Shown here one piece after another: positions 3,406 to 32,803 of a stretch of 32,803 bases of DNA (position 1 is its first letter; every line of letters begins with the position of its first letter). The stretch lies in the IMG/VR virus record IMGVR_UViG_2617270990_000007; one strand, given 5' to 3'. Position numbers and translations under genes: made by a program. The notes below the pieces were generated by a model. The model saw nothing but the letters and a program-made list of their open reading frames with translations, had not been told where the DNA came from and did not search any database. The stretch is from a virus. Taxonomy: Duplodnaviria > Heunggongvirae > Uroviricota > Caudoviricetes.

Positions 3406-3442
3406 GGTTTTTTTCTAATAAGTATCATTTCGGGTGGGGATT

Positions 3443-3967: not shown

Positions 3968-4159
3968 AATAAATCCTGTACTTTTGATAGTTGAGAGTAA
4001 GTATGAAAGATAGATGAGTACGACCGATCACTTAAAGAACTTTCCTACTATATTAGGAATAGTCAATAACAGAAAAATTGTCAGTGATGAAGCCAGAAAG
4101 GCAATTTAGTCCGTGCACTACAAAGTTTATGTGTTAATGAATTAGTCAAGGGGGAGGAA

Positions 4160-5119: not shown

Positions 5120-5516
5120 CTGTATGCGATATCATCTGAAAGTGATGAGTTCCTGTATGCAGGATATTTACAATCGTAAAAACTACGCTATGATGCTCAT
5201 AGTGTCAGTTTTTATAAAAATCCTGTTCACGCTAAAGAAAACATTGAGATGCAATTTAATGTTGGTAAACATACCAGCCCCAAAAGATTTTATTCAATCT
5301 GTTTTTATATGAAGATATTTCAAGTGAATATAAAGAGCATATAATATTATTATTGCACGCAGCTATTATAATATAACAGATTAGTTTAATGATTTGTTTT
5401 TTGTGAGTTAAACACATGGTTTTATAGTTGTGATGCAATGAGATTTTCCTTATTGTTGAACTGGCGAATATTGATTTTCCACCTATACTTACCTGGTGTA
5501 ACCCCAATGATATCAG

Positions 5517-6239
5517 GTGGATAATATGCCATACATATGTTCTATCATTTTGGTGTTGAACTCGTTTGGTGTCCGAATTGGTAAAGAAGATATTTTGTTT
5601 AAAAAAGGAAATGCTGTCCTCATTGAATACAATTTAAAAGATCTTTTTTCGTCAAATACAGATCATCTAATGATCGTAGATATTGAGGAGAAAACAGTTA
5701 ATGATTTCTTTAAAAACTACACACTCTCACCTTTTTCTGTAAGAAGGTTTTATCCGTCATACTTGATAGTAGAATGTGAAGATTTTTCATTGTTAAGGAA
5801 CTTGGTTGCATGCTTGAATTGTGATAGCAAAACCGTGGATGTAGTTAGAAATCAAATATCACTTGCATGTCTTGCTGTCTTATCTTCAGAGAAAATAGTG
5901 CAAAGTTTTTTGTTCGGAAGTCTTAATAGCTTAGGTTGTAAAGTTAAGGCTATTATTCACTCGGATATCTCAGCGTCATGGAGACTTTGTGATATATCTT
6001 CAAGATTATATATGAGCGAGAGTTTGTTAAAAAGAAAATTAAAAGACGAAGGATTATCGTTTAGTAAATTAATTCTTGAAGAACGAATGATGATGGCGCA
6101 AAGATTATTGATCTACAGTAACCATACTGTCGGCAAGGTGGCGGGAATATGCGGGTATGACAATGCATCATATTTTGTAAGTGTTTTTAGAGGATATTTT
6201 GGTGTGCCTCCGCACCAATATTTATCAAGATTTTCTTAG
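5517..6239 (+). CDS. AraC/XylS-family transcriptional regulator
   Basis: 240 aa, very AT-rich; C-terminal AraC-type HTH signature (…ASYFVSVFRGYFGVPPHQY…). Confidence 0.75.
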   Translation: MDNMPYICSIILVLNSFGVRIGKEDILFKKGNAVLIEYNLKDLFSSNTDHLMIVDIEEKTVNDFFKNYTLSPFSVRRFYPSYLIVECEDFSLLRNLVACLNCDSKTVDVVRNQISLACLAVLSSEKIVQSFLFGSLNSLGCKVKAIIHSDISASWRLCDISSRLYMSESLLKRKLKDEGLSFSKLILEERMMMAQRLLIYSNHTVGKVAGICGYDNASYFVSVFRGYFGVPPHQYLSRFS

Positions 6240-6429
6240 AAGATATGATGTGATGGCATTTTATAAAGTTATTTTTTGAAGTGTAAGATTATACGATATT
6301 TTTAGCTACGCCAGAATAATTGCTGGCGTTTTTCTTTTTGAATAGATGTTCGGGCCTTACGCTAATGTAACTTCTTTCCTTCTTCGAACCAAACCGTGTA
6401 CACCATCCGTTATCTGCGGAGGTGAGGCT

Positions 6430-6645
6430 ATGAAATCCATGGATAAGTTAACAACGGGCATCGCCTACAGCACCTCTGCAGGCAGTGCTGGCTACTGGTT
6501 TTTACAGTTGCTCGATAAAGTCACGCCCTCACAGTGGGCGGCAATAGGTGTATTGGGTAGTCTGGTATTTGGCATGCTGACGTATCTGACAAACCTTTAT
6601 TTCAAGATTAAAGAAGACAGGCGTAAGGTTGCGAGAAGAGAGTAA
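6430..6645 (+). CDS. lambdoid holin (EssD/S-like)
   Basis: 71 aa from ATG at 6430 ([31 protein letters not shown]…), SD GGAGGTGAGG upstream; closely resembles DLP12 EssD. Confidence 0.8.
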
Positions 6646-6649
6646 TCCA

Positions 6650-7201
6650 ATGACTCAAGACTATGAACTGGTTGTGAAAGGAGTTCGCAATTTTGAGAAT
6701 AAAGTGGCGGTAACTGTAGCCTTACGGGACAAAAAACACTTTGACGGTGAAATTTTTGACCTGGACATCTCGCTGGACCGTGTTGAAGGTGCCGCGCTGG
6801 AGTTTTATGAGGCAGCAGCCAGAAGGAGCATCAGACAGGTCTTCCTGGATGTTGCTGCCGGGTTATGTGAAGGGGATGAGCAGTCGCCGGAAAAGCGCCC
6901 CATAATTTTAGAGGCGCAGAATGTGTGGATAACCTACAAAGGAAAGCTACCGGGAAGAATTACTGGTTCTCTGAAGACGCCACCGACGGCATTGCGGTCA
7001 GAAAAAGATGATATTGAATCGCCCATTGAAAAACTGGAGGGCAGCGTCGCTGATCTGAATAAAAAATTGTCGGTGCTGATTCCTTCTGAAGATGAAAAAA
7101 AACGCCGCGATGAGCAGTTTGCGGCGTTTTACGATTATTGCATTGAAGTTACTCGCAGGAATTTTGTGAAGATTTTTGAGGAGGGTAAATCTCTTCAGTA
7201 A
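6650..7201 (+). CDS. hypothetical protein (183 aa) within the lysis cassette
   Basis: ORF between holin and endolysin; start taken at the ATG giving MTQDYELVVKG; no recognised motif. Confidence 0.45.
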   Translation: MTQDYELVVKGVRNFENKVAVTVALRDKKHFDGEIFDLDISLDRVEGAALEFYEAAARRSIRQVFLDVAAGLCEGDEQSPEKRPIILEAQNVWITYKGKLPGRITGSLKTPPTALRSEKDDIESPIEKLEGSVADLNKKLSVLIPSEDEKKRRDEQFAAFYDYCIEVTRRNFVKIFEEGKSLQ

Positions 7202-7409
7202 GCTTATTGGCGGACGCTGCAATTAATTCAGGAAGGTCCGCAAGGTCATCTGTCAGTGGATATGATGAAAAATCGGCGGCAGTTCTGTTAAGAAGCGCTT
7301 TAACTAATTCCTTTTCCTTCTCCGGCAACAAGTTGATTAGAGCTACGACTGCTTGCCTGAGTGCGATTAAATCAGCAAAAGTTTGTTTAGGTAGATTTGT
7401 GTAATCCAT
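7149..7409 (-). CDS. hypothetical small protein (86 aa), antisense to the lysis cassette
   Basis: ORF with AGAGG SD-like sequence about 6 nt upstream of its ATG; overlaps the 3' end of the preceding gene. Confidence 0.3.
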   Translation of the reverse strand: MDYTNLPKQTFADLIALRQAVVALINLLPEKEKELVKALLNRTAADFSSYPLTDDLADLPELIAASANKLTEEIYPPQKSSQNSCE

Positions 7410-7522
7410 AGTCGCCTCTGTGTTTATCAGATTGACATCCTCCTCCCGCCAGTGCCCATCACTGGTGAGGTAAGATTTAACATATCCGGGGATTTGAAGC
7501 CGATAAATCCTGATAAATATCC

Positions 7523-8550
<1,028 letters not shown>

Positions 8551-8910
8551 ATTAATATTAAATCGGATTATTTTTAGCGCTGAATGTGAAATTTAAATAA
8601 AAAGGACTCTTCCATGAGTCAAAATCCTTGAAATCTTAAGGGTAAGATAAAAGGTCATTAGACAGAATGACACGTTTTATTAATAAATAAAGCTATTGTT
8701 TCATTCGTGTGTTTTTCTTTACAAAAGTAATCCTTGCTATGGTTGGTTAATCATGCGTTAATGGTGTTCTGGTTTGTTACAAAATTATCTGAAGCAGTCA
8801 TTGTTATAATTTTATTATTTGTACCTCTTGAGATTTCCTTGTTGGTTTTTCTCTCTGATATTTTTTTTCGGACCATTCTGCCCAAGGGCTAACTTCTTCA
8901 AAAGGTAATA

Positions 8911-9126
8911 ATGATGTCTAACAAAATGACTGGTTTAGTGAAATGGTTTAACCCTGAAAAAGGTTTTGGTTTCATCACGCCGAAAGATGGTAGCAAAGAT
9001 GTGTTTGTCCATTTCTCAGCTATTCAGAGCAACGATTTCAAAACGTTAACTGAGAATCAGGAAGTCGAATTTGGTATTGAGAACGGACCTAAAGGCCCCG
9101 CGGCTGTTCATGTTGTGGCACTTTGA
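8911..9126 (+). CDS. cold-shock protein (CspA family, CspB/CspI-like)
   Basis: [13 protein letters not shown]…KGFGFI…[10 protein letters not shown]… canonical cold-shock domain; long AT-rich 5' leader upstream. Confidence 0.9.
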
Positions 9127-9325
9127 GGTAGAAAATATTACAAACCATATTCACTTTAGATGCCCGTGTTGCCATGGTTCTCAGTATAGAACATCATCTT
9201 TTGATGTTTCTGACAGGAATCCTTTCGGGGCAAAATGTATCTTTTGTAAATCAATGATGATTACATTTGATAATATTTCACAATACTTAAATGTTAGCCG
9301 TCTATCGTTAGATTTAAGAAAGTGA
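9109..9325 (+). CDS. hypothetical Cys-rich small protein (about 72 aa)
   Basis: ORF from ATG at 9109 overlapping the csp stop; CPCC…CIFC spacing suggests a zinc-ribbon. Confidence 0.3.
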
Positions 9326-9369: not shown

Positions 9370-9458
9370 GGCTTTCAGCGGTGTAATGCGGGTTTGAGCA
9401 CCACATAAAGCCACTGAAAGCCGCTATAAATCACCCGAGTGTGGACACTGTGTGGACG
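9370..9458. other. candidate attL of the P2-like prophage (core region plus Int arm-type direct repeats)
   Basis: Two direct repeats GTGTGGAC (9439..9446, 9450..9457) at the int 3' end resemble the P2 Int arm-site consensus as I recall it; 11-bp inverted repeat GGCTTTCAGCG / CACTGAAAGCC (9370..9380, 9412..9422) just outside int. Confidence 0.4.
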
Positions 9459-10444
9459 TTTTCGGGTTCAATGCCGCCCTTTAACGGATTGAGTGTTACG
9501 GCATCTTGTAAATACTCTGGCGCGAAGTGCGCGTAGACCATTGTCTGCTCTATGCGCGCGTGACCGAGTATCCTTTGTAGCGTGATAATGCTTCCTCCGT
9601 TAATCATGAAATGCGTAGCAAAACTGTGCCGTAGAGCATGGGTTGCCTGTCCTGCTGGCAGGTCGGGCTTTACCTCTTTCAGTACCTGCCGGAACAACGT
9701 GTAATCGGCATTCGGGAACAGGAAGCCGCGCTTCACGCTGGTGAGTATTTCACATACTTCTGCCGATACTGGCACCGTTCGGGGTTTGTTCGTTTTGGTT
9801 TTAACAAACGTCACCCGATTATGGATGATGTGCTCGGCTTTCAGTTTTGCCGCTTCACCCCACCTAGCGCCCGTGCTTAGGCAAAGAACCGCTATTTTTT
9901 TATTGTCACCATCGAGCCGCGAGAAAAGGGCGGTAATTTCCTCGTTGGTTAAATAGCCCGTTTCGGGCTTCTCCTCTTTGAGTCGTTTACGTCCTCTTAT
10001 CGGGTGTTCGCCATGGTATAGCTCGGCCTCAATCAGAGCGGTAAACATTCCGCTGATGCATGTCAGATCCCGATTGATGGTAGATGGCTTAACGCCTTCA
10101 CCTCGCCGAGCTGCAACATACTGGCTAATTACCGTCTTTGTAATCTGAAACGCGCACGGATCACCGGTTATCGCCGCGAATTTCTCGACCTTTCCCCGAT
10201 TGTACTTTCCCCATTCCTCGTGCTTTGCCTTGAGTTCCCACCAGATTTGAATCAATTCGGAAAGTTGCCTTTTATCGGTCGGCTTCGCTAACCAATCCTT
10301 GTTGTGGTGGTTGTATTGCGTGTGCTTCTCAAAGGCCACTGCCTCACTTTTCTTGTCAAACTTCCTGCGGATGCGTTTTCCGTTGCGTCCGCTAGGTCTA
10401 ATGTCCACTTCATAACGACCATCATCGAGTTTCTTAATTGTCAT
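9431..10444 (-). CDS. int: P2-like tyrosine integrase
   Basis: 337 aa; C-terminal catalytic region with R…HALRHSFATH…LGH…Y motif typical of tyrosine recombinases; adjacent to C and cox in P2 order. Confidence 0.9.
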   Translation of the reverse strand: MTIKKLDDGRYEVDIRPSGRNGKRIRRKFDKKSEAVAFEKHTQYNHHNKDWLAKPTDKRQLSELIQIWWELKAKHEEWGKYNRGKVEKFAAITGDPCAFQITKTVISQYVAARRGEGVKPSTINRDLTCISGMFTALIEAELYHGEHPIRGRKRLKEEKPETGYLTNEEITALFSRLDGDNKKIAVLCLSTGARWGEAAKLKAEHIIHNRVTFVKTKTNKPRTVPVSAEVCEILTSVKRGFLFPNADYTLFRQVLKEVKPDLPAGQATHALRHSFATHFMINGGSIITLQRILGHARIEQTMVYAHFAPEYLQDAVTLNPLKGGIEPENVHTVSTLG

Positions 10445-11845: not shown

Positions 11846-12013
11846 ATGACAATTCAAACAAATGAACGCGCGCACCTGCTTGGATTGTTACGTATCAAAT
11901 TAACCTTGCTGAAAAAAGAAAAACTGTCCACCAATGAAATTTATCGCAGCCTGGAAAACTGGATCGACAACAGAGAACAGGCCGCAGAAATCAAGGAGCA
12001 AAAAAGTGATTAA
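11846..12013 (+). CDS. small ORF (55 aa) overlapping the methyltransferase start
   Basis: ATG with G-rich SD 8 nt upstream; stop TAA overlaps the GTG start region of the methyltransferase; below the 60-aa cutoff of the ORF track. Confidence 0.3.
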   Translation: MTIQTNERAHLLGLLRIKLTLLKKEKLSTNEIYRSLENWIDNREQAAEIKEQKSD

Positions 12014-12998
12014 CTCCCCTCTGATCTGGGCTGGCGGCAAGTCTCGCGCGATGCCTCATGTACTGGATGCTCTGCCGCAGGGTGAATGCCTCGTTGAGCC
12101 TTTTGTGGGTAGTGGTAGCGTCTTTCTGAATACAGACTATAAAACCTATATTCTGTGTGATAGCAATGCAGCCCTAATTAATTTCTTCTCTATGGTTAAG
12201 CGCAACACAGAAGCGCTTTTAACTTATGCATCCGCCTTGTTTTTGACTGGTAATAATGAAGATGCATATTACATAAATCGTGATGACTTCAATATTTTTA
12301 ATCGCGAGTACGCAGGGCATAGAGAGCAATATACAAATGATGAATTAGTTAAATATGCAGCGCTATTTCTTTATTTGAATCGTCACTGCTACAACGGTGT
12401 TTACCGTGTTAATTTAAAGAATGAATTCAACGTTCCTTTTGGTTTTCGTAAGAAGCCAATTTTCCCTGTGGCTGAGATTCAGCATTTTGCAAAAAGGGCT
12501 TGGGACAAAGGGGCAATGTTCCTGCATGGTGATTTCAGAGAAACAATTCCTCTATCTATCGGGCATTCAGGCTGCGTGGTTTATTGCGATCCTCCATACC
12601 TGCCAGCCAGCGAGACTGCAAATTTTACTGCATACGGTAAGCCCTTTACTGATGAAGACCATCGCGCCCTGGTTGCGATGCTTTCACGCCTCTACAACCA
12701 GGCAAAAATACCCTCTGTTATTTCCGGCAGTGACACCCCGGAAACGCGCCAAATTTACTACCCGTTCACCCTTAACTCATTCGAAGTCCGGCGTTCTGTG
12801 GGAGCAAAAACACGCAATCTCGCGGGTGAGGTGATTGGTTCGCTGCTCGTCTGTGACGAGTGCGGGCAAGTAGGGCGTGGTTATTGCGCTACCTGTTGCC
12901 CTGCCGTTGCTGGCGATGGCTATGAATCTGGAAGCGATACCTTTTGCTGTCGCAACTGCGAGATCTGCGATTCATACACAGCAGCAGAGGACTTCTGA
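12006..12998 (+). CDS. dam: Dam-like N6-adenine DNA methyltransferase with Cys-rich C-terminal extension
   Basis: SPLIWAGGK (AdoMet-binding motif I) and DPPY (catalytic motif IV); GTG start with AAGGAG SD 6 nt upstream; C-terminal ~55 aa carry ten Cys (CDECG…CATCC…CCRNCEIC). Confidence 0.85.
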   Translation: MINSPLIWAGGKSRAMPHVLDALPQGECLVEPFVGSGSVFLNTDYKTYILCDSNAALINFFSMVKRNTEALLTYASALFLTGNNEDAYYINRDDFNIFNREYAGHREQYTNDELVKYAALFLYLNRHCYNGVYRVNLKNEFNVPFGFRKKPIFPVAEIQHFAKRAWDKGAMFLHGDFRETIPLSIGHSGCVVYCDPPYLPASETANFTAYGKPFTDEDHRALVAMLSRLYNQAKIPSVISGSDTPETRQIYYPFTLNSFEVRRSVGAKTRNLAGEVIGSLLVCDECGQVGRGYCATCCPAVAGDGYESGSDTFCCRNCEICDSYTAAEDF

Positions 12999-13644: not shown

Positions 13645-16224
13645 ATGTCTTCATTTCGCCGCTCTCATAGCATGACCAACATGCCGGGAGGCTCTATCGA
13701 GCCAGCCCGGTATGCTTACGCCTGGAATGAGCCAAAAGCCGCCATCTTCGTTGATAAGGCTCCCGCTGTTGATCTATATGAATTGGGTCAAGAGCAGGAG
13801 TTTTTCGCCTGGGTTGAAAATCCCCTCAAGCCGTTGCCTATCTTCATTCGCCGCCGCATTGCCTCTTACATAAATACCGTTCACGAGGATAAAGGGCGCC
13901 ATATCGCAAAACTGAAGTTGCGCGACATCGTTAAGCGCGAGCTTCCACACGTCAGAAACGTCACGAAACAATACGCTGTGCCAGAAGACAATGAGTGGAT
14001 CATTTTCTCTGAACTAAACCCACTGTTTCACTCGTTTGAAAATCTGCGTGAACTTGTCCGCCGCTTTAATAATCTGGCGGATTGCACGGATGAAGATATT
14101 GATTTGCTGGCTCAGGACATAGCCATTTATGCCAATGCTGTTTTGGCTGAAGTGAGCGAGGGTGCAAGTGTGTTCAACGATACTGAATACACCAAACGCA
14201 TGCTGCGTGAAGGCTCCAGGCTGATTGCGTATTTCAGGTTAGTGCCGCCCTGGGCGAAGAAGCGCCGGATGGCGCTTGATGAAGCGACAGCAGCAATACA
14301 AAAAACCCTTCATGATCGCTTTTGGTCACGCCTCCTGCGCAAGTACGCCCGCCGCTGGCGCGAGCATTTGCACATTGCCTATGGTGACGTGCGCCGCGAT
14401 GTTTCACCGTATTGCAGCAAACACCACGTTACGCAGTGGGATTCACGCCGTAAGCGTAGCCGCGCAATTATGAGCCGCCTTGAACTTGAAGATCAGGTAA
14501 CTGGTGAGCGCATTTCGCTGATAGAGCAGATTGATAAGAGCATTTCTAATCCTGAAAAGCGCCGTGTTGAGTTGATGACGCGCATTGGTGGATTTGAGAA
14601 GGTGGCAACGGAAAGCGGGTTTGCCGGCAGTTTCTTCACCCTGACCGCGCCGTCTAAATATCATGCCTTTACAGCGTTCGGGCATCGTAACCGCAAATGG
14701 AACGGAGCCAGCCCCCGCAAGACACAAAACTACCTTAATCGCGTCTGGCAACTGATCCGCGCGGAGCTTGCGCGCCGTGAGATTTCTGTTTTTGGCCTTC
14801 GTGTTGCAGAGTCTCACCATGATGGTACTCCGCATTGGCATGGCCTTCTGTTCACAGCCCCAGAGCATACCGGCGAATTGCTGGAAGTGATGGAAGACTA
14901 CGCCACGCGTGAAGATGCTGATGAACTCACCGGCAAGAATGGCAAACAGCCCCGCTTTGAACTTAAGCCGATAGATCCGGCTTTGGGGAGCGCTACTGGA
15001 TATGTCGTTAAGTACATATCTAAAAACATCGACGGTTATGCACTGGATGGTGAAAGCGACGACGAAAGCGGACGCCCACTGAAGGAGACAGCAAAACACG
15101 CTACTGCCTGGGCTTCATGCTGGGGCATTCGTCAGTTTCAGTTTCTGGGTGGCGCGCCGGTGTCCGTCTGGCGTGAGTTACGCCGCCTGAAGAATCAGGA
15201 AATGGCAGATCGAATCAGTCCGGTTTTCGGTGAGTTACACCGCGCCGCCCATGCCGGGAACTGGCAGGACTACATCACCTTGCAGGGTGGTCCGTTCGTG
15301 ACACGGAATAGGCTTGTGTTGCGCGCCTGGTATCAATATCGGGATGAGCCGAGCAGTTACGGCGAGTTTCAGAGGGTTATTAAAGGGGTGGTCATGCCAG
15401 CATCGACCGTTCCTCCGGTTGAAACCCGCCTCCATTCTTATCGCATTGTCAAAAAGAAGCCAAAAGCAGACGACGCCGCCGATCGAGGTTTTGACCTTAA
15501 GGGCGCGCCCGCGCCCTCTTGGACTCGTGTCAATAACTGTACTGAGTACAAAAAACATACAAATCAAGGGGCGGTAAATCCACCGCCTGAAGATCCAGAA
15601 CAATATGAAATTGGTCAAATGAGCCGAGAGCAGAAAAAACGGCTTAATGAGAGCATCAGAAATTACAAACCAAAACAGCAAAAATCACCTGCTGATGTGT
15701 TTGAGTCGCTTGCCAATGCTATTGCCGCTTCAGATTGCGATAGCGCAGATCAGGAGCGCGCTGAAAATTACATGAAAGTGGCGGCGGCTATCCGCGATGA
15801 ATCAGCAACCCGGCGGAGCAGTGTTGTGGAGGCCACACCAATGACTGCTCACCTTCGCTATCAGCTTTCCTCTTGGGGAATTAAGTCCAAGCCTGATATT
15901 GATGCCCTTCGTCGCGGGGCTTTGCTTTCTTTTGATGATCGACATGTTTATCTGAAGGATGGCTATCTGGTAGAAAAGACCAAAGCAATTTACTGTAGGG
16001 CTAGAGATTGTAATGCGGAGTTAAATCAGGATGATATAACCTATGGCGATGAAAAGCTCTGCTTGGCTTGTACTATGAAGCTGAAGGGGGTAGAAGTAGT
16101 CGAACAGCGCCGCGATGAAGTTAAGCAGAGAGTTAAAGCGGAAAGGAAGCGGGAGAATGATGTACTCCTTGAAAGATTAAGGGTTGCGCTCATTAATGGG
16201 GGGAAGCGTGGGCAAGTACTTTGA
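13645..16224 (+). CDS. A: P2-family replication initiation protein A (rolling-circle endonuclease)
   Basis: 859 aa; central block …FFTLTAPSKYH…HHDGTPHWHGLLF…GYVVKYISKNIDG… matches the P2 gpA family (conserved Tyr/His motifs). Confidence 0.9.
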   Translation: MSSFRRSHSMTNMPGGSIEPARYAYAWNEPKAAIFVDKAPAVDLYELGQEQEFFAWVENPLKPLPIFIRRRIASYINTVHEDKGRHIAKLKLRDIVKRELPHVRNVTKQYAVPEDNEWIIFSELNPLFHSFENLRELVRRFNNLADCTDEDIDLLAQDIAIYANAVLAEVSEGASVFNDTEYTKRMLREGSRLIAYFRLVPPWAKKRRMALDEATAAIQKTLHDRFWSRLLRKYARRWREHLHIAYGDVRRDVSPYCSKHHVTQWDSRRKRSRAIMSRLELEDQVTGERISLIEQIDKSISNPEKRRVELMTRIGGFEKVATESGFAGSFFTLTAPSKYHAFTAFGHRNRKWNGASPRKTQNYLNRVWQLIRAELARREISVFGLRVAESHHDGTPHWHGLLFTAPEHTGELLEVMEDYATREDADELTGKNGKQPRFELKPIDPALGSATGYVVKYISKNIDGYALDGESDDESGRPLKETAKHATAWASCWGIRQFQFLGGAPVSVWRELRRLKNQEMADRISPVFGELHRAAHAGNWQDYITLQGGPFVTRNRLVLRAWYQYRDEPSSYGEFQRVIKGVVMPASTVPPVETRLHSYRIVKKKPKADDAADRGFDLKGAPAPSWTRVNNCTEYKKHTNQGAVNPPPEDPEQYEIGQMSREQKKRLNESIRNYKPKQQKSPADVFESLANAIAASDCDSADQERAENYMKVAAAIRDESATRRSSVVEATPMTAHLRYQLSSWGIKSKPDIDALRRGALLSFDDRHVYLKDGYLVEKTKAIYCRARDCNAELNQDDITYGDEKLCLACTMKLKGVEVVEQRRDEVKQRVKAERKRENDVLLERLRVALINGGKRGQVL

Positions 16225-16495
16225 TGATTATGAACGGGAAGCTGACTATCAAAATTGGCTCTATTATCGAGAATCTTCGCATGAGGAACGTGAGTCAAAA
16301 AGTCATTATATCAGCCAGGATGAAGCTGAGGTGGAAAGTAGGCCTAAGTTGGTTGTGACGAAAATTGAATGGCCCGCAGTAGACGTGTTTCGTGATTTCC
16401 CTGAACACCAAGCCCTGATTACCGCTGCGGAAAAAAAATACTTTGAGTCAAAATCATGCGTTCGCGACACTGGGGATGACCAAGATGATGATTGA
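16196..16495 (+). CDS. small acidic protein (about 99 aa), P2 orf91 position
   Basis: ATG-started ORF overlapping the last ~29 nt of A; highly acidic, ends DDQDDD. Confidence 0.35.
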   Translation: MGGSVGKYFDDYEREADYQNWLYYRESSHEERESKSHYISQDEAEVESRPKLVVTKIEWPAVDVFRDFPEHQALITAAEKKYFESKSCVRDTGDDQDDD

Positions 16496-16564: not shown

Positions 16565-17716
16565 TTAGATAGGGGAATTCATGCTATCGGGTGCTGTTAC
16601 TACCAAATGAACTTTCGTTAATCTTTCAACCGCAAGTTTAGGCAGTACACTATCAAAAATAGCTAAATAATTTTCCAAAAGGGAATTAATATAATCAAGT
16701 TTGCCATGCTCAATCTCATACCAAGTGTCAGGGAGATACCTGACTATAATGCTTAATGTATATAATACGACTAAGTGTAATACAAAGGGATCTTGAGTTC
16801 CCCAAAATGGGACAATTACACTCGTTCCACAATAACCAGATTTGTGTGTCGTGACATAATCCCACCATAGCTCATCTTCAGGGTGATGGACTTCTCCTAC
16901 AAAATATGGTTGGTCATATTTTGTGAGGTTTTCTTCTGACTCAATTTCAATGTTTTTTATTCCAATGTTGTAAGAATTAAGCTCTTCTGCTGTTACATCG
17001 CTACCTTTGGGATAAATTGCGGCATATGTAAAACCTGAGAACTCTGGTTTAGGACGCGATAGGCCACCGAGTGACTGATTCCTTGATCTTAAGAGCATGT
17101 TTCTACTTGCTTGTCCAATTTGGAATGAAAGTGGATCTTCACCGAAAGTTTCTTGTAAAAGCGGTCTTAATTCTGGAATTCGTTTTAATAAATCAGTTAA
17201 AGAATAGGTGCGTGATGGGTCTAAATCTTCATCTTTTTTTGGACGTCTTTCTGTTGCATACTGTTTGATATCAATTCCTATATGCTTTGCATATGAATAA
17301 AAATGTCCACTTTTAAGACAGCCTATTTTTATATTGTCTGGGAATGTTTCATTTTCAACAGATTGTGTGAATAGCCCATGACCTGAAACCGTATGCTTTT
17401 GAACATTTTTTAAATCGTCGTTAGGATCCCCTGATGATATTTGTTCAGCTAAGCTTATCTGTAATAATGCATAATATCTGGATAAAATTTTTGAATTGAG
17501 TCCGCCATTTTCAGTCTCCCAATATCCGATTGCACTTCGTATTGCGGAGGACATTCCAATGGATTTTTTAATCAATACATCCTCTTGCAATGACGGATGA
17601 TTATTTTCTATTATTTTCTTACAGAGCTGCGCACTCATTAATCGTTTTAATCGTAACCAGATTGCACCGCTAACATCTGCTGCAACGAAACGTTCTATTG
17701 TTTTTTCTGATGACAT
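16565..17716 (-). CDS. hypothetical protein (383 aa), hotspot cargo gene 2
   Basis: Long AT-rich ORF with AAGGAA SD 5-6 nt upstream of ATG; no domain recognised by eye. Confidence 0.6.
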   Translation of the reverse strand: MSSEKTIERFVAADVSGAIWLRLKRLMSAQLCKKIIENNHPSLQEDVLIKKSIGMSSAIRSAIGYWETENGGLNSKILSRYYALLQISLAEQISSGDPNDDLKNVQKHTVSGHGLFTQSVENETFPDNIKIGCLKSGHFYSYAKHIGIDIKQYATERRPKKDEDLDPSRTYSLTDLLKRIPELRPLLQETFGEDPLSFQIGQASRNMLLRSRNQSLGGLSRPKPEFSGFTYAAIYPKGSDVTAEELNSYNIGIKNIEIESEENLTKYDQPYFVGEVHHPEDELWWDYVTTHKSGYCGTSVIVPFWGTQDPFVLHLVVLYTLSIIVRYLPDTWYEIEHGKLDYINSLLENYLAIFDSVLPKLAVERLTKVHLVVTAPDSMNSPI

Positions 17717-17995
17717 CGCTGTTCCTTAGTTGACGTATTACAACTTTTCAAAGTTAACCATACTCTACAAAATTAGTGGTACTAAAGGGAGCATTTTTTG
17801 ATTGCCAGCAACTTCAAATCACATAGCGGGGAGCTACAATGTAGTGTGTCGCGGCTTGGTCCTTGCTAAGAATCCATGTATAACTGAGCGCCACGAAATT
17901 GTAATGCCCTTCAAAGACCGCCGGGATTGGCGGCTTTTTAGAGTTTACTTCTAGTTTTATTGCTTCAAAATAGAGATAAAAGATAATATGGCTTA

Positions 17996-19345
17996 TCAGT
18001 TAATATCAAAGCCTTCGATCTTCTCATACATCATTTCAAACCATTTGACTCGTTGTCCAGGTATTACAGCCATGAATGCGTACTCAGTGAGCATATCAGA
18101 GGAACGTAGTTCTTCATCGGTGGCTAAGTGGTATTTTAACAATATTGCAATATAATAAATCTCAGAAACATCGACAAGGTTTACAGGAATTGATAATCGT
18201 TTAAATATCTCATCTTCTGTCAGTTTTTTGTTTAATATTTCCATGAGTAAGGATTGGTTGAATATTTTCAAGAAAGCAACTAGTGCGATGGCAACATGAA
18301 ATATTTCATGTCGGTAGGAATTTACTTCGCTGGGGTCGTTCATTATTGCGAATGTTGAATAGCAACGCTCAGCCTCTCGCAGTGAACAGTTATTCATTTC
18401 TAGAAGATACGCGAGGGTTTTTACGAGAGAACCATTCCGAATCAGTATGTCATTCCCTTGATCTAACGACAGGAGATATTGTGTTAACGTTGAACGTTCA
18501 TAGCCTGCTCGGCAGCCTACTGAGAGCATACTTTTTTTAGGAAGAGTAAACCAATAATGAATAAATTTATTTAAATATAATCTTGTATTTATGCTCCCAT
18601 ATCTACACTCTATACTTTTTTCAAACTGCTCACGGTTAACTACTAGTAAGAAAACAAAACCTTCCACTGAAAATATATGTTTTATTTTCTCTAGCAAGTC
18701 AAGGGAAAAATCAGGTCGCGACCTGTCTAGCTCATCAATTATAAATATTATTTTTTTCCCACACTCAGTGTGAATCTTGGTCAGCAATGCTCTAAATTGC
18801 TCAATTGTTGCTAACTCACTCTCGCTCGTTTTTATTTTTTCTTCAATGTACTCTTCAATAGGTGATGTGAGAGAGTCACTGATGGCATCACTTGCTTTCT
18901 CCAGTGCGTTACCTGAGACTAATCCACTTGTGAAAGTGCTTACGGCAAATTTTGCACCATTAAGTGCGAATGACGCGCCTAGTTTTTTACCAATGGATAA
19001 TAACTCTTTCCCGAGGTTTTTAAGCTTTCCATCTTCTTTTTTTATGAGTGAATAAATTTTTGATGTTAAGGCTACAAATGGGTCTGATTGATAGTCATTT
19101 TCAAAAGCGTCAAAGTAAATAACGTCAAAGTTGTCAGCATGGTTTTTATTTATTTCTGATGACATCATTTTTACAAATGAGGTTTTTCCGTTACCCCATT
19201 CATCATTGAGCGCAAGTACAAGACTTTTATCTGGGGCATTTGTTGCTACCCGCATGATGATGTCATGAAGTTTTTTACGTCCAAATATGTCATCTGCTGT
19301 ACTAAAACCATCTGAGAACGCTTTAACAGGAGCGGTCAATCGCAT
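17996..19345 (-). CDS. KAP-family P-loop NTPase (449 aa), hotspot cargo gene 1
   Basis: Walker A with the KAP-typical Trp (NDEWGNGKTSF), following F-D-A-F…D-P-F segment, Walker B IIFIIDELDRSRPDF; GAGGAA SD upstream of ATG; AT-rich. Confidence 0.7.
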   Translation of the reverse strand: MRLTAPVKAFSDGFSTADDIFGRKKLHDIIMRVATNAPDKSLVLALNDEWGNGKTSFVKMMSSEINKNHADNFDVIYFDAFENDYQSDPFVALTSKIYSLIKKEDGKLKNLGKELLSIGKKLGASFALNGAKFAVSTFTSGLVSGNALEKASDAISDSLTSPIEEYIEEKIKTSESELATIEQFRALLTKIHTECGKKIIFIIDELDRSRPDFSLDLLEKIKHIFSVEGFVFLLVVNREQFEKSIECRYGSINTRLYLNKFIHYWFTLPKKSMLSVGCRAGYERSTLTQYLLSLDQGNDILIRNGSLVKTLAYLLEMNNCSLREAERCYSTFAIMNDPSEVNSYRHEIFHVAIALVAFLKIFNQSLLMEILNKKLTEDEIFKRLSIPVNLVDVSEIYYIAILLKYHLATDEELRSSDMLTEYAFMAVIPGQRVKWFEMMYEKIEGFDIN

Positions 19346-19548
19346 AATTTCTTTTCCTCATTTATTTAATGATTTAACGGCATCATAACTAGGCATGAGG
19401 TTACTTTTCAATAGAGTAAAGTGATGCACGATTGTGCGCAAAAATGCACAATAAAATCAGCCCCTTTTTGGGATTATCGAGGCAGGATCTGCGGGGGCTG
19501 GCGGTGGATCTGCAAGTGCACGAAAACACGAGTGTTCGTTGCGCGCAG

Positions 19549-19567
19549 GTGACGGGGGGAAAGCCCG
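19549..19567. other. candidate cos site of the P2-like prophage
   Basis: GGTGACGGGGGGAAAGCCC matches about 15 of 19 positions of the P2 cohesive end as I recall it, in the GC-rich gap between the hotspot and portal gene Q. Confidence 0.4.
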
Positions 19568-19750
19568 CGCGGCGGGGGGGTAGGGGGATGCCTCAAATAT
19601 AGGGAAATTGGCGCAATTCTGGCGCGCTGCTGCGTTCTGTGTGTTGTGTGCGGGTAATGGCGTGTTTAGATGATGGGGCGCTTAGAATGGCGCTGGCGCG
19701 CCGTGTGTTGATGTGATGCTAAGAGCGCCGCCGGACTGGCGGCGGTGTGG

Positions 19751-20812
19751 TTATTTGGTGGATTCAAGCAGGGCGTAAGGTTTAAAGCGGATCACTTCTT
19801 CGCCAAGCCAGTCGTTGACGTGCTTCAGTGCTTCCATTGCTGGCATCAGTTCGTTGATGGCAAACACGCGCGCGGCTTTCTCCATATCACCGAATGAGCC
19901 GTTGCCGTCCGGCATGGCCCCCATCAGTTGCGGTGGTACGCGGTGAGCGGCAAGGATGTCATCACGCGTAGCTGATTTAATATTTAAAAACTCATCCTTT
20001 GCAGATATCTGGCTGAAGGGCATCAGTTGTACCCCATCTTTGCCGCCGCCTGGTGCGTGGATCACTACGTTCTTAAATGCGCCTTTGTTCCTGGCTCCTG
20101 CCAGTGTTTGCTGTATCTGTTTTACACCAGCGTCATCTACCTGTGATGTGCCGATGTAAAGAATGCAGCCAGCATGAGATCCGTTCTCATAGTACATTTT
20201 GCGAAACATGTCCGCCGAGTGTGACAGGCTGGCTGACAGCAGGGTGCCCATATATTCCGGCATCCCGTAGATTTCCTGGTGAATATCGGGGTTCAGCACG
20301 TGGCAAACTGTGCCGGTTTCAAAGGCGCATTCGTCTTTCCACTGCCTGATAAACCAGTACGTGTCCAGGTCGGTGCCGCGCCGGGTGTACTTCGCAGGGG
20401 AATGGCGAAGCGGTAGCCGCCCGCCTAGCCGGTTCTTTCGTTCTTCAAGATAGAAGTTGCCAAACACAAACCAGTCAAGCGCCAGGGCGGAGAACGTCTG
20501 GCGAGACAGTAGCGGGTGTGGAATAAAGCATCCCGCCAGCGCGTTGCGCTTGAAGTACAGCGCTGACTGGTGCCAGGATGCTTTGCCGAATGAACGCGCA
20601 AGCCCGTACCAGTCCACCGGCGTTTCGTAATATCTGCCGTTGTCGGCGCAATACATATTGTCGAGTAGGTCGTAAGCGTCCGCGACCTGGTATGGCCCAT
20701 CAAAGGTGAAGGCGCTCAGAGCGGGATCGCGCTTTAGTGCTTCGCCAATATCAGCCTGTTGCGCGCCGTCAGTAAGCATGGTCATACCGCTTTCATGTGT
20801 TGTTGTGTTCAT
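19751..20812 (-). CDS. Q: portal protein (P2 gpQ-like)
   Basis: 353 aa; size, position next to cos and upstream-adjacent to the terminase ATPase; similarity to the gpQ family by eye. Confidence 0.85.
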   Translation of the reverse strand: MNTTTHESGMTMLTDGAQQADIGEALKRDPALSAFTFDGPYQVADAYDLLDNMYCADNGRYYETPVDWYGLARSFGKASWHQSALYFKRNALAGCFIPHPLLSRQTFSALALDWFVFGNFYLEERKNRLGGRLPLRHSPAKYTRRGTDLDTYWFIRQWKDECAFETGTVCHVLNPDIHQEIYGMPEYMGTLLSASLSHSADMFRKMYYENGSHAGCILYIGTSQVDDAGVKQIQQTLAGARNKGAFKNVVIHAPGGGKDGVQLMPFSQISAKDEFLNIKSATRDDILAAHRVPPQLMGAMPDGNGSFGDMEKAARVFAINELMPAMEALKHVNDWLGEEVIRFKPYALLESTK

Positions 20813-22536
20813 TAAAACTCCATAACGAAACTACCGCCGCCGCCGTTCTCGCGTCCAAGCGGCTCGTTGATGACTGCCAGCATATTGGCCCAGGCTAAGT
20901 CGCCGTGACTGACTCCGCGCGCGCGGTCGGTGTCATAAGTGACTTGTCCGCCGGGGGTGGTGATCTTTCTGACAGCGTTGAATGCTGACACTAGCGCCTG
21001 TTCACTGCGGTCATACTCCCAGCGCCCCGCGCGGATCACCTGTTGCATTTTCAGTACCAGGGTGCGCTTTGATGACAGCGACATTATGAAACAGACCGAA
21101 GCCGGGAAGAACTTTTTGACCAGTTGCCAGACCGCTTCACCGATGCCGGTGCCGTCAATTGCGATGTGTCGAACGTTATATTTCATCGTCAGGTCTTCGA
21201 TCACTTTGGCCTGTTCTTCAAACTCCATCCCGCGTAGCTGGCGCGTCTCTATCGTGCGGAACTTGCCGCCACTGACAAGGGGAGGGGCAACCACGGAAAC
21301 AGCGCCGCTGTCACCGTTGCCGCTGCCGCCGTTGGCGTCGTAGCCTATCCAGACTTCACGATCACCCAGCGGGCGGGGTGCGTAGGGTTTCCAGTCCTGC
21401 CAGTCGTCGTAGCCGTCCGCGCCACACGTCAGTAGCTGATTGAGTGAGAAAACAGCCTCGCCTTCTCTGACGAACTCACACATGTACAGGTTGGTGTATT
21501 CGTCCGGGGTGTTTTCGTCCTGGATTTCTTCCAGGTCGGTGAACTCCCAGCCGTGGTCGATCACGTCCTTTAGGGTGACAATCTGCCGCCAGGTTTTGTC
21601 CGGGCACAATAGGCCGCTGTTTAGCGTTTTCCAGCTTGTGTCGAAGTCTACCCTGCTGGACTTGGCCCGCTTCTCATTCCAGCGCTTGCCCGTCCAGAAG
21701 GGGTAGGCTTCGTGGCTTTCGCTCGATGGCGTTGAAAAGTAAGTGCGCGTAAGCCCTTTCAGGGTTGCCATAGCGCCAGCCACTTTGCGAAGGTTGGCAA
21801 AGTTGCCTACCCAGAAAAATTCATCAAAAAACAGGTTGCCGGTGTAGCTCTGCGCAGTAGCGGCAGACGTGCCGAGAAAATGCAATTCAGCCCCGTTAGA
21901 CAGCAAAATTTTGTCACCGCCCTTTAGTTCTACGTCTACCTCTTCGGCAATCTTCTGAATGAATCCCCGGAACTGGTGCGCCTGGCGGCGTGACGCTGAC
22001 AGAAAAATCTGGTTGCGTTGGTATCCGTGCTTAACGTCATCCCGCAGCGCCTGTAATAGCGCTTCGCGGGCAAAATACCAGGTTGCGCCAATCTGGCGAC
22101 TTTTCAGGATCATGCGGTTTCGTTGCTGGCGCTGTTCAAACCATCCCTGCTGATGCCAGGCCAGAGAGTCCTGAATTTTTTCCCGCAGCGCGGCGATCTG
22201 CGCTTCGGTGAAGTGGTTTTTCTTCTTGCCCGCGCGCGCTTTCTTGAAGGGTTGCGCCGGTTGGCCTTCTGCCAGCTTCTTCACCTGGCGCGTGAGCGCG
22301 TCGATTTCCTTCAGATCGCCGCCGGTCTTTGTTGGTTTCATCGCGATTTGGCATAACCGGGCATCAATAGATTGTGTGACGCGCTGAATCGCGGGCGTTT
22401 CGTCCCATTCGTCGCGCTTTTTCCACGAATAAACCGTGTTCTGACTGATACCCATCAGGCGTGCGATCTCTGCTGGCGGGTAGCCCTGCCAGTAAAGCTG
22501 CTTTGCTCTCTGTCTTACAAATGCGTCCTGGATCAT
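20812..22536 (-). CDS. P: terminase large (ATPase) subunit (P2 gpP-like)
   Basis: Start set at the internal ATG (MIQDAF…) with AGAGGA SD, because the longer track ORF would cover the late-promoter dyad at 22602..22619. Confidence 0.85.
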   Translation of the reverse strand: MIQDAFVRQRAKQLYWQGYPPAEIARLMGISQNTVYSWKKRDEWDETPAIQRVTQSIDARLCQIAMKPTKTGGDLKEIDALTRQVKKLAEGQPAQPFKKARAGKKKNHFTEAQIAALREKIQDSLAWHQQGWFEQRQQRNRMILKSRQIGATWYFAREALLQALRDDVKHGYQRNQIFLSASRRQAHQFRGFIQKIAEEVDVELKGGDKILLSNGAELHFLGTSAATAQSYTGNLFFDEFFWVGNFANLRKVAGAMATLKGLTRTYFSTPSSESHEAYPFWTGKRWNEKRAKSSRVDFDTSWKTLNSGLLCPDKTWRQIVTLKDVIDHGWEFTDLEEIQDENTPDEYTNLYMCEFVREGEAVFSLNQLLTCGADGYDDWQDWKPYAPRPLGDREVWIGYDANGGSGNGDSGAVSVVAPPLVSGGKFRTIETRQLRGMEFEEQAKVIEDLTMKYNVRHIAIDGTGIGEAVWQLVKKFFPASVCFIMSLSSKRTLVLKMQQVIRAGRWEYDRSEQALVSAFNAVRKITTPGGQVTYDTDRARGVSHGDLAWANMLAVINEPLGRENGGGGSFVMEF

Positions 22537-22601
22537 GCGGTGTCCTCTCGTTTCGATGGAGAGATTAACCCGCGCGCGTGGGCCGTTCCCGCTGTTTGGG
22601 T

Positions 22602-22619
22602 TGTGGGCCGTCTCTGACA
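22602..22619. promoter_or_regulatory. late-promoter activator dyad (TGT-N12-ACA) in the divergent P/O promoter region
   Basis: TGTGGGCCGTCTCTGACA; centre lies about 55 bp from plausible start points for both P (leftward) and O (rightward). Confidence 0.5.
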
Positions 22620-22692
22620 ACTAAAACGCGTTGAGACAATGACTTAGCAACTGACATCATGGAAAAACAGAAACCAACCGGCAGGAAAGAAC

Positions 22693-31498: not shown

Positions 31499-31540
31499 TG
31501 AACCGCCCCGGGTTTCCTGGAGAGTGTTTTATCTGTGAAC

Positions 31541-32431
31541 TCAGGCTGCCAGATCATCGTTTCCGATGGAAGCATAATAAGCTTTTTCTGCTTCTGCCGG
31601 AGGAGTATGGCCCAGCCTTCCCAGCAATCGTCGATTGTTATACCAGTCCACCCACGTTAGTGTGGCCAGTTCCACTTCTGCACGGTTTTTCCAGCTCTTA
31701 CGGTGTATTACCTCCGCTTTGTAAAGACCATTGATGCTCTCAGCCATCGCGTTGTCATACGAGTCGCCTGTACTCCCTGTTGATGCCAGTAATCCGGCTT
31801 CTTTTAGTCGCTCCGTATAGGCCAGTGACACATACTGAGAGCCTTTATCGCTGTGATGGATGGTGCCAGACGGACGACGGGCCCACAACGCCTGCTCCAG
31901 CGCATCCAGCACGAATGTCGTTTCCATAGACGATGAGACCCGCCACCCCACGATGTATCCGGCAAACACATCAATGATAAACGCCACATAGACGAAGCCC
32001 TGCCATGTGCTGACGTAAGTAAAATCAGCCACCCACAGCTGGTCAGGTCGTTCTGCCACGAACTGACGGTTTACGCGGTCGCCTGCGGCAACGGCTTTCC
32101 GGCTGATGGTCGTACGGACCTTTTTACCCCGGAGAACACCGGCAAGTCCCATAACCGCCATGAGACGTGCCACTGTACATCTGGCCACCCTGATTCCTTC
32201 CCGTAACAACTGACGCCAGACTTTACGCACACCGTACACCTGATGATTTTCATCGTATACGCGCTGTATCTCTCTCTTCAGCCAGTCGTCGTGCTGCGCA
32301 CGGGCACTGCGTTTATCCGGATGATGTCGCTGTTGCTGACAATGGTAATACGTTGACGGGGCAATATGCAGTTCGCTGCATACCGGTCCGACCCCGTACT
32401 GCTCACGCAGCTTATCCAGCAGTGGCATCAT
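31541..32431 (-). CDS. IS3-family transposase OrfB (copy 2)
   Basis: Translation identical to ORF 24..914. Confidence 0.9.
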
Positions 32432-32754
32432 TTTTTCCAGAGGCGGTCGAACTCCGCCTTCGCAAAATAAGCGGAAGCCTGGCGAAGGATATCGTTACTG
32501 CGGCGCAGTTCACGATTTTCACGTTCCAGCTCTTTCAGACGCTGACGTTCAGCGCTGGTGAGCCCACCATCACCGCCCCCGGTATCCCGCTCATGCTGGC
32601 GAACCCAGACACGCAGAGTCTCCGGCGTACAGCCAATCTTTGGGGCAATGGAACAAATTGCCGCCCACTGTGAGTCATATTCATCCTGACTTTCCAGAAC
32701 CATACGAATCGCCCGCTGACGGACTTCGGGGGAAAAACGAGTATTTTTAGTCAT
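32428..32754 (-). CDS. IS3-family transposase OrfA (copy 2)
   Basis: Translation identical to ORF 911..1237. Confidence 0.9.
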
Positions 32755-32803
32755 CCTGTTTACCTCTTTCTCAGGGAGTTTAGTCTCCAGGATTTCCGGG
32801 GCG

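Follow-up and report, generated by a model that had tools for sequence, protein, structure and literature searches.

A soluble, stand-alone KAP-family ATPase from the gpA-gpQ hotspot of a P2-like prophage in E. coli as a candidate anti-phage protein

Between the two borders of the P2-type cargo hotspot, the window (the whole stretch of 32,803 nucleotides that was analysed) contains a gene coding for a complete, soluble and stand-alone KAP/AAA+-like ATPase. The gene is exchangeable hotspot cargo with a promoter-like site of its own, and its product most likely acts against phages, a reading to which we assign a probability of about 0.6. The proposal that KAP NTPases are conflict proteins dates back twenty years; to our knowledge, data within this group exist only for PifA, for QatA and for a small number of proteins from Firmicutes. 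The present gene is in the main a further entry in the catalogue of candidates and reveals no new kind of system. Its subfamily is very large and minimal (about 450 aa, a single gene and no effector that could be recognised) and occupies the first position after cos in the defence hotspot of P2-like prophages from at least five enterobacterial genera. The gene thus offers a small, easily cloned model with which to ask how phages are sensed, what the output is and whether the C-terminal domain determines specificity.

A preliminary description of this DNA had assigned the protein to the KAP family on the basis of the Walker A region NDEWGNGKTSF, the segment FDAFENDYQSDPF and the Walker B region IIFIIDELDRSRPDF. 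All three are present in the 449-aa open reading frame (Table 1), with Walker A reading W50-G-N-G-K-T55 and Walker B running from I199 to D204-E-L-D-R208. The assignment to the KAP-family P-loop NTPases was confirmed by the Pfam KAP_NTPase profile (PF07693), which matched residues 24-277 with an E value of 6.7e-38 (131 bits, with respect to a cut-off of 20), and the motifs are therefore not a chance occurrence. The PADLOC PDC-S20 profile gave a near full-length match (E 1.2e-74, residues 18-403), as did phrog_8614 of PHROGs over residues 1-407 (E 1.9e-122); weaker PADLOC matches, to PifA and QatA, were limited to the NTPase domain. Across 92 aligned homologues no variation is seen at W50, G51, G53, K54, D204, E205, D207 and R208, and a set of 23 distant homologues, which represent several phyla, retains the patterns WGxGK[ST] and hhhhDELDR. 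No sequence relatives of the protein were detected in the PDB.

The AlphaFold2 model (pLDDT 82.5, pTM 0.76) shows an AAA+ architecture, in which an alpha-helical lid with a conserved arginine follows the fifth core strand. The C-terminal part of about 200 aa, in which no motif had been recognised, is thus to be divided: residues ~271-345 are a canonical AAA+ lid, and only for residues ~346-449 does the original statement hold, since these gave no structural match. A Foldseek search of the PDB with the C-terminal 179 residues returned nothing significant. N237 ends the strand 230-236 and the nearly invariant R248-Y249-G250 ends the next helix; judging from these positions, N237 may be a sensor-1-like residue and R248 is a candidate arginine finger. 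When the whole model was submitted to Foldseek, the best match was RdrA of the RADAR system (PDB 8hr8 and 8fnt; E 4e-6, query-normalised TM about 0.5), aligned over about 500-540 columns with 12-15% sequence identity, followed by ORC/Cdc6; the fold also resembles DnaA and clamp loaders.

Table 1. Features of the KAP locus; coordinates refer to the window.
Feature	Coordinates	Strand	Residues or basis
P2-type replication endonuclease gpA	13645..16224	+	phrog_91, E 3.6e-225; Pfam Phage_GPA
YaaC-like gene	16565..17716	-	383 aa; Pfam YaaC, E 3.7e-20
KAP-family ATPase gene	17996..19345	-	open reading frame, ATG start, 449 aa
C-terminal helical domain	17999..18310	-	residues 346-449; candidate target recognition
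AAA+ lid domain	18311..18535	-	residues 271-345
Lid motif S321-L-R-E-A-E-R-C328	18362..18385	-	invariant or near-invariant
Sensor-1-like N237 and R248-Y249-G250	18602..18637	-	conservation, predicted secondary structure
Walker B region IIFIIDELDRSRPDF	18707..18751	-	residues 199-213
Helical insert between Walker A and Walker B	18758..19027	-	residues 107-196; AlphaFold2
Segment FDAFENDYQSDPF	19076..19114	-	residues 78-90
Walker A region NDEWGNGKTSF	19175..19207	-	residues 47-57
Sigma-70-like promoter TTGAAA-18-TATGAT	19382..19411	-	consensus scan, predicted, 10/12 matches
P2-type portal gpQ	19751..20812	-	phrog_68, E 2e-144
Terminase	20812..22620		

Evolution has been far more rapid in the C-terminal domain (residues 346-449) than in the core of the ATPase. 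The frequency of the majority residue is 0.38-0.42 in the former as compared to 0.87 in the latter; homologues with 84% overall identity are 95-97% identical in the core and 61-65% in the C-terminal domain, and those with about 72% overall identity are 86-91% and 39-46% identical, respectively.

The protein had also been described as an unusually small KAP member, and this did not stand, since a length of about 450 aa is standard in a subfamily of very large size. The 92 aligned homologues are without exception 447-472 aa long. At E≤1e-30 the subfamily comprises 781 clusters (50% identity), and the best 150 of these 781 are almost all of 425-470 aa; the PADLOC PDC-S20 profiles span 446-464 positions. 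PADLOC PDC systems are defence candidates that were found within loci of BREX, DISARM or type I RM systems. PDC-S20 (Payne et al., bioRxiv 10.1101/2024.01.29.577857) corresponds to phrog_8614, which PHROGs annotates as 'unknown function', and has the same length class and single-gene organisation as our protein; no difference was detected and the protein is a member of this family, itself a candidate with no assigned mechanism. It is therefore a typical representative of a large family of candidate single-gene phage-defence proteins and not as an oddity. No paper found in our literature search mentions PDC-S20, and KAP is not mentioned in the DefensePredictor paper. The surroundings of the distant homologues consist mostly of housekeeping genes, with only scattered defence matches, which counts against a role in defence.

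As for the location, gpA and gpQ form the two borders of the anti-phage hotspot of P2-like phages defined by Rousset et al. 2022 (PMC9122126), and the KAP gene lies between them in this P2-like prophage of E. coli, where it is the cargo gene that comes first after cos. On the cos-proximal side the conserved backbone extends from gpQ to about 19425, the stretch 19425..19750 being homologous to E. coli P2-like prophages. The cargo island has a GC content of 37-40%, as compared to 51-56% in the prophage. An Rfam scan of the hotspot gave nothing, and the P2 cos 19-mer had no match with up to 3 mismatches; by eye, a weak 15/19 match to this 19-mer can be seen at 19548..19566.

The content of the slot is exchanged between closely related backbones. 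In E. coli ES1, whose portal is 99% identical, it holds a methylase and a hypothetical gene, and in AMSCJX04 (portal 89% identical) three hypothetical genes; both are devoid of KAP and YaaC. Homologues of 45-72% identity occupy the same slot in prophages of Klebsiella, Salmonella, E. coli, Serratia and Yersinia, usually alone or else with unrelated co-cargo such as HicAB, and portal and/or gpA flanks were observed at 28 of 42 KAP loci of IMG/VR. Among 23 distant KAP loci no conserved neighbour was found, and the only clusters recurring at several of them were antisense open reading frames inside the KAP gene and genes of two related genomes. When the cargo genes were compared as DNA with complete E. 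coli genomes and GenBank phages, no match was obtained, and tblastn against phages gave only five distant matches.

The table of the hotspot study (PMC9122126) lists KAP_NTPase cargo 69 times in E. coli. Like old/tin and the other P2 cargo described there, our gene lies in the cos-adjacent slot and is subject to exchange among related backbones; that study catalogued the KAP cargo but does not report it as one of its validated systems, and the protein has no sequence relationship with Old or Tin. Taken alone, this location is weak evidence for defence, because only about one third of the hotspot systems that were cloned proved protective and about one quarter of P2-like phages carry partition genes in the hotspot (PMC9122126).

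These partition systems also bear on another explanation, according to which the protein is an accessory factor of the phage that acts on DNA, for example in the manner of an initiator or loader, in replication, cos packaging or episomal maintenance. The likeness of the fold to ORC/Cdc6, DnaA and clamp loaders, the vicinity of the gene to cos and to the replication gene A, and the ability of the KAP protein QatA to bind both ssDNA and dsDNA are consistent with such a role. We nevertheless consider it unlikely. The gene is dispensable, given that closely related backbones without KAP hold unrelated cargo, and homologues are also found as solitary genes at non-phage chromosomal sites in several phyla; moreover, the family was independently picked up inside BREX, DISARM or RM loci, and an association with defence holds for every characterised bacterial KAP protein considered here (PifA, QatA, EF_KAP and three metagenomic KAPs). 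The hypervariable C-terminus, too, is more in keeping with an arms race than with housekeeping duties for the phage.

The YaaC-like gene lies downstream of the KAP gene, on the same strand and in the same low-GC island, and the exact pair recurs in many samples. This arrangement would be expected if the two proteins formed one system, with a sensor or switch ATPase and a YaaC effector, or with the roles reversed. YaaC homologues are also found directly downstream of other variable proteins, namely Abi_alpha in Citrobacter and, in a defence island of Bradyrhizobium, a CHAT protease of 1300 aa, so that YaaC might be a module shared by different partners. Every copy of the pair, however, belongs to one prophage lineage. 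YaaC is present at 1 of the 28 P2-type KAP loci of IMG/VR and is missing from the other 27 and from all 14 of the remaining IMG/VR KAP loci. Nor does it occur at 27 distant loci in genomes or at the KAP loci of Klebsiella, Salmonella, E. coli, Serratia and Yersinia. A YaaC with 78% identity occurs alone in a satellite-like island with primase and integrase, the KAP and YaaC genes are separated by 279 bp that include a hairpin, and DNA homology to other loci ends at each coding sequence separately. A two-gene system is on these grounds unlikely, and the YaaC-like gene is independent co-cargo of the same island and not a conserved partner of KAP. An obligatory partnership was ruled out by tblastn (27 genome and 42 viral loci) and by five enterobacterial gene maps. 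The hairpin (17918..17933) is only weak evidence for separate transcription of KAP and YaaC, because its T-run is on the plus strand. YaaC has no sequence relatives in the PDB; our literature searches on YaaC, alone or with KAP, gave only noise, and no paper on YaaC with HEPN was found.

With regard to the membrane, the absence of a strongly hydrophobic insert noticed in the preliminary description was borne out. Kyte-Doolittle analysis of the whole protein in 19-residue windows found no TM-like segment, the mean reaching at most 0.94 in the insert between Walker A and Walker B and 1.72 in the entire protein. The latter value corresponds to residues 353-371, which include K, N, Q and E and are predicted by AlphaFold2 to form a buried helix (pLDDT ~96). 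For most of the 92 homologues the maximum lies either in the packed helix of the C-terminal domain or in the Walker B strand and its vicinity. The insert is located where classical KAP proteins bear TM helices and contains a Gly/Ala/Ser-rich element, GASFALNGAKFAVSTFTSGLVSGNAL (residues 123-148), which is conserved, only mildly hydrophobic and unstructured in the AlphaFold2 model (pLDDT 31-39). A constitutive membrane protein, embedded through this insert or through helix 347-371, is very improbable: the position of the insert, the conservation of its small-residue motif across phyla, one Pectobacterium homologue with an insert hydropathy of 1.81 and the maximum of 1.72 in the query would fit it, but the insert of the query reaches only 0.94 and that of 21 of the 23 distant homologues no more than about 1.4, helix 347-371 contains the polar residues mentioned above and is modelled with confidence as packed within the C-terminal domain, and half of the 92 homologues have their maximum on the Walker B strand or immediately behind it. 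PifA has no TM helices either (PMC13001434), and for this reason a TM-less protein is still a KAP member. TM helices are typical of the KAP family and not universal in it, so that their absence does not exclude membership; TM-less examples, PifA and QatA, were already known.

The protein was also compared with characterised systems. PifA of the F plasmid, the founding bacterial KAP protein, excludes phage T7 by abortive infection. It has the KAP NTPase domain in common with our protein (PADLOC PifA profile, E 1.8e-19, residues 18-271), is likewise devoid of TM helices and acts against phage as a single protein. The match is confined to positions 16-256 of the 720 of the profile, and beyond it the two proteins have nothing in common in their C-terminal parts; what triggers PifA and what output it produces can therefore not be transferred to our protein. 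QatA, the KAP NTPase of QatABCD, was purified as a heptamer or octamer. The PADLOC and NCBIfam matches of our protein to it cover the NTPase domain, but the NCBIfam score is 53 bits against a cut-off of 600, and our protein is about 180 aa shorter. No QatB, QatC or QatD is present near the KAP gene, which is instead surrounded by YaaC, gpA and portal. RdrA, a defence ATPase that forms rings, has 780-850 aa and is roughly twice as long as our protein, and the likeness is structural only, as PADLOC gave no RdrA match at E≤0.1; no RdrB adenosine deaminase gene lies near the KAP gene, and our literature search found no paper dealing with RdrA together with KAP.

Four KAP proteins with uncharacterised C-terminal regions confer Walker-B-dependent phage resistance in E. 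faecalis. These proteins share with ours the combination of a KAP NTPase and an uncharacterised C-terminal region, both the Walker B motif and the C-terminal region being required for defence. They differ in that EF_KAP has two TM helices and a C-terminal region of 322 aa, as compared to no TM helix and about 100 unmatched residues in our protein, and in that the group originates from Firmicutes and is linked to serine recombinases, whereas our gene is found in a P2 prophage context.

We infer a defence activity in which the C-terminal helical domain (~346-449) would act as sensor and recognise a component of the infecting phage. Recognition would switch the ATPase core into an ATP-dependent ring, probably of about seven subunits by analogy with RdrA and QatA, and K54, D204/E205, the sensor-1-like N237, the candidate arginine finger R248 and R323/R327 of the lid may take part in the switch. 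The ring itself could be the effector, leading to abortive infection as in the case of PifA, possibly through the Gly/Ala-rich insert; alternatively, it might bind and remodel phage DNA or protein. This output step is speculative, because no recognisable effector domain is present. We regard as unlikely the more specific idea of a self-sufficient immune system made of one protein and lacking a separate effector domain, in which the ring would be the weapon once the hypervariable C-terminal domain has sensed the phage, and the Gly/Ala-rich element would be a soluble descendant of the KAP TM hairpin, kept as a latent membrane-insertion or pore-loop device for use on activation only. Protection would cover the lysogen and its prophage against other phages.

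The predicted promoter is located about 37 bp upstream of the KAP ATG, and the scan that identified it gave sites in the region no more numerous than in shuffled sequence. A Shine-Dalgarno sequence, GAGGA, precedes the gene at 19355..19359.

The 449-aa open reading frame under study, which starts with an ATG, carries all three motifs quoted in the preliminary description and matched the Pfam KAP_NTPase profile over residues 24-277 with an E value of 6.7e-38 (131 bits; cut-off 20); the motifs are thus no chance occurrence. In 92 aligned homologues, residues W50, G51, G53, K54, D204, E205, D207 and R208 showed no variation, and WGxGK[ST] and hhhhDELDR were retained, 137-150 residues apart, in 23 distant homologues (28-54% identity) from Gamma- and Alphaproteobacteria, Desulfobacteria, Campylobacterota and other groups. 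PADLOC assigned the protein to PDC-S20 (E 1.2e-74, residues 18-403), with weaker matches to PifA and QatA that were limited to the NTPase domain, and PHROGs assigned it to phrog_8614, annotated as of unknown function. The protein belongs to both the KAP family and PDC-S20/phrog_8614; PDC systems are candidates selected by 'guilt by embedding' in BREX, DISARM and type I RM loci (bioRxiv 10.1101/2024.01.29.577857).

The preliminary description considered this KAP protein unusually small, a view that did not hold. A full scan of 1.84 billion representative proteins found 11,928 relatives with E<=1e-3, of which 781 reached E<=1e-30, and the best 150 were nearly all 425-470 aa long; the small size is therefore the format of a large subfamily and not peculiar to this gene. 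KAP proteins lacking transmembrane helices are not new either, as PifA has none (PMC13001434) and purified QatA has been assayed as an oligomer that binds DNA.

The surroundings of the KAP gene are those of a P2-like prophage, and the host is E. coli, judging from the left flank of the window, which matches DNA of Qin-type prophages in many E. coli strains at 99.8% identity.

Features of the window and motifs of the KAP protein
Feature	Position	Strand	Remark
IS3-family element, left copy	1..1286		
Qin-type lambdoid prophage remnant	1843..9172		
cspA-type thermoregulator RNA	8756..9172		in the Qin-type remnant
Integrase	9431..10444		P2-like
Dam methylase	11934..12998		
Replication endonuclease gpA	13645..16224		
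Small overlapping ORF	16184..16495		
YaaC-like gene	16565..17716	-	
KAP gene	17996..19345	-	
Promoter-like site	19411..19382		predicted, TTGAAA-18-TATGAT, upstream of KAP ATG
19-mer near portal	19548..19566	-	conserved portal-proximal segment
Portal gpQ	19751..20812		
Large terminase	20812..22620		capsid and tail genes come next
IS3-family element, right copy	31518..32803		
Walker A region NDEWGNGKTSF	residues 47-57		KAP protein
FDAFENDYQSDPF	residues 78-90		KAP protein
Walker B IIFIIDELDRSRPDF	residues 199-213		KAP protein

The KAP and YaaC-like genes form an island of 37-40% GC, as compared to 51-56% in the surrounding phage, located in the gpA-gpQ interval. This cos-adjacent slot, occupied by old and tin in P2 itself, was defined as a hotspot of anti-phage systems by Rousset et al. 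(2022); their supplementary table lists KAP_NTPase arrangements of P2-like prophages from E. coli 69 times, and KAP is absent among the validated systems reported there (PMC9122126). Backbone homology with other E. coli P2-like prophages extends from the portal to about 19425. A promoter-like site follows, and a putative GAGGA ribosome-binding site lies between it and the KAP ATG, so that the cassette appears to supply its own expression signals. On the other side, homology of gpA to the most similar P2-like backbones of E. coli ends internally (tblastn residues 1-731 of 859; DNA to ~15565), and the variable region therefore reaches into the 3' end of the gpA gene and the small overlapping ORF (~15566..16495).

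The order portal-KAP-gpA was common to five other lineages. Homologues from Klebsiella (72% identity), Salmonella (65%) and E. coli (45%) had no co-cargo, apart from small unannotated ORFs in Klebsiella; co-cargo in Serratia (48%) was HicAB and a methylase, and in Yersinia (53%) an unannotated 284-aa ORF and three small ORFs. Portal and/or gpA flanked the KAP relative at 28 of 42 IMG/VR loci, where the KAP start usually lay 400-900 bp past the portal; KAP is therefore typically the first gene after cos in P2-type loci. At the 23 distant genome loci (KAP ORFs of 433-479 aa), no recurring neighbour ORF family was found. The neighbourhoods consisted mostly of housekeeping genes, with three integrases and scattered defence matches (MADS, Ppl, a PifA-like protein, a reverse transcriptase, PDC-S04 and a restriction enzyme). 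Two complete E. coli genomes with near-identical backbones (portal 99% and 89%, gpA 91% and 85%) contained wholly different genes in the slot, which shows cargo replacement directly.

An AlphaFold2 model built from the 92-sequence alignment (pLDDT 82.5, pTM 0.76) predicted a five-stranded P-loop core (residues 42-47, 73-79, 198-204, 230-236 and 264-267), a long helical insert (residues 107-196) separating strand 2 from the Walker B strand, and an all-helical C-terminal half. Only the insert tip (residues 130-161) was of low confidence. Classical KAPs carry transmembrane helices at this position; here, the tip holds a Gly/Ala/Ser-rich, mildly hydrophobic element, whose pattern is repeated in distant homologues. 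The top PDB matches of the whole model were RdrA rings (E 4e-6, TM ~0.5, >500 columns), followed by ORC/Cdc6 and clamp-loader AAA+ proteins. In the model, N237 at the end of strand 4 and R248 at the end of the following helix are candidates for sensor 1 and arginine finger, respectively.

Conservation drops steeply towards the C-terminus, the majority-residue frequency being 0.87 in the Walker B-strand 5 block, 0.53 in the lid and 0.38 in residues 373-449. The closest homologue (P0002, 84% overall) is 95% identical in residues 1-106, 97% in 197-270 and 65% in 346-449; the corresponding values for a Klebsiella homologue (P0010, ~72% overall) are 86, 91 and 46%. At the DNA level, too, cassettes cease to be homologous within the 3' part of the gene. 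A target-recognition surface engaged in an arms race would be expected to produce such a gradient, and may underlie it.

We propose, with a probability of about 0.6, that the KAP protein is a single-gene, stand-alone anti-phage cargo. This reading relies on the known defence members of the family (PifA, QatA and four KAP proteins validated in E. faecalis, where defence was Walker-B dependent), on two independent 'guilt' signals (the P2 hotspot and embedding in BREX/DISARM/RM loci), on the autonomy of the gene from its neighbours, on its intact catalytic motifs and on its fast-evolving terminal domain. Such an ATPase would most likely benefit lysogen and resident prophage alike. The C-terminal domain would sense a phage component, after which the core would assemble as an ATP-dependent ring, plausibly a heptamer by analogy with RdrA (heptamer) and QatA (heptamer or octamer). 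Since the protein has no effector domain, be it a nuclease, a protease, a TIR or another type, the ring itself would act directly. It might cause abortive infection and damage the membrane, as PifA reportedly does (PMC13001434), perhaps via the conserved insert element, or, considering that QatA binds DNA, it might bind or remodel phage DNA or protein; any one specific output is much less probable than the defence role.

A DNA-directed accessory ATPase of the phage, with no part in defence, would suit the initiator-like fold and the position beside cos and gene A, but it is unlikely, because the gene is dispensable, its homologues also occur outside phages and its C-terminus is hypervariable.

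The YaaC-like protein (Pfam PF14175) had no PADLOC match. In Klebsiella, a 78% identical YaaC occurs on its own behind the primase gene of a satellite-like island, an 80% identical one follows an Abi_alpha gene in two different contexts in Citrobacter, and a 46% identical one follows a 1300-aa CHAT protease, beside AbiEii and an RT-trypsin gene, in Bradyrhizobium. The gene behaves as mobile cargo itself; it appears to be a hitherto unrecognised gene associated with defence, perhaps a module pairing with variable upstream partners. That KAP and YaaC form a two-gene system would agree with its place behind such variable genes, the CHAT protease lying in a defence island. We regard it as improbable, however, given the solitary Klebsiella copy and the co-occurrence in only one of the 28 P2-type KAP loci, a locus 100% identical to the window, and in none of the other 14 IMG/VR loci; the many records of the exact pair all belong to one prophage lineage.

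A Kyte-Doolittle scan of the KAP protein found no membrane-spanning segment: the maximum (1.72) was an amphipathic helix, residues 353-371, confidently packed within the helical domain by AlphaFold2, and the peak between the Walker motifs was only 0.94, in agreement with the earlier remark that no strongly hydrophobic insert is obvious. A genuinely membrane-embedded protein is hardly credible, as hydropathy is too low and the only hydrophobic helix is packed as soluble.

The protein is not PifA, to which it is homologous over the NTPase domain only, nor QatA, as its score is far below the equivalog cut-off and QatBCD genes are absent. Its whole model resembles the heptameric RdrA rings of the RADAR system, but it is not RdrA, with no sequence match and no RdrB. 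Gene class and hotspot location were already catalogued (PADLOC; Rousset's table). Our analysis adds that the compact format is a large single-gene family, that in P2-like prophages from at least five genera KAP systematically takes the first cargo position behind cos, that it can be parsed into a core, an insert, an AAA+ lid and a hypervariable domain of ~100 residues, and that its predicted fold is RdrA-like. Compact KAP is of interest mainly because it offers a minimal, tractable model of KAP defence ATPases, which are poorly understood.

Other observations concern related loci and the rest of the window. In an Arcobacter MAG (locus L021), a larger KAP-type gene (4637..6778, minus strand; PADLOC PifA, E 1.7e-94) adjoins a compact KAP, placing two paralogues side by side. 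In the two near-identical backbones mentioned above, the slot is occupied by three genes without annotation (469, 114 and 253 aa; E. coli AMSCJX04, locus L101, 3745..6224) and by an orphan DNA adenine methylase with a small ORF (E. coli ES1, locus L100, 2979..3900), all further candidate hotspot cargo. The 19-mer GGGCTTTCCCCCCGTCACC agrees by eye at 15 of 19 positions with the reverse complement of the 19-nt P2 cohesive end, a weak lead to the cos site; a pattern search with the cohesive-end sequence at <=3 mismatches gave no match. The Qin-type remnant (ydfU/DUF968, lipocalin, YbgA-like, AraC-type regulator, DUF1327, rrrQ lysozyme and Rz-like DUF2514 genes) directly adjoins the P2-like integrase, which indicates that the P2-like phage integrated beside or within an older prophage. 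The window ends are 100% identical, directly oriented copies of an IS3-family element (orfA 108 aa, orfB 296 aa); an ALIL frameshift pseudoknot is present in both (Rfam, 121.5 bits). They could delimit a real IS-flanked segment or a contig with the same repeat at both ends; the right-hand copy interrupts the P2-like tail region.
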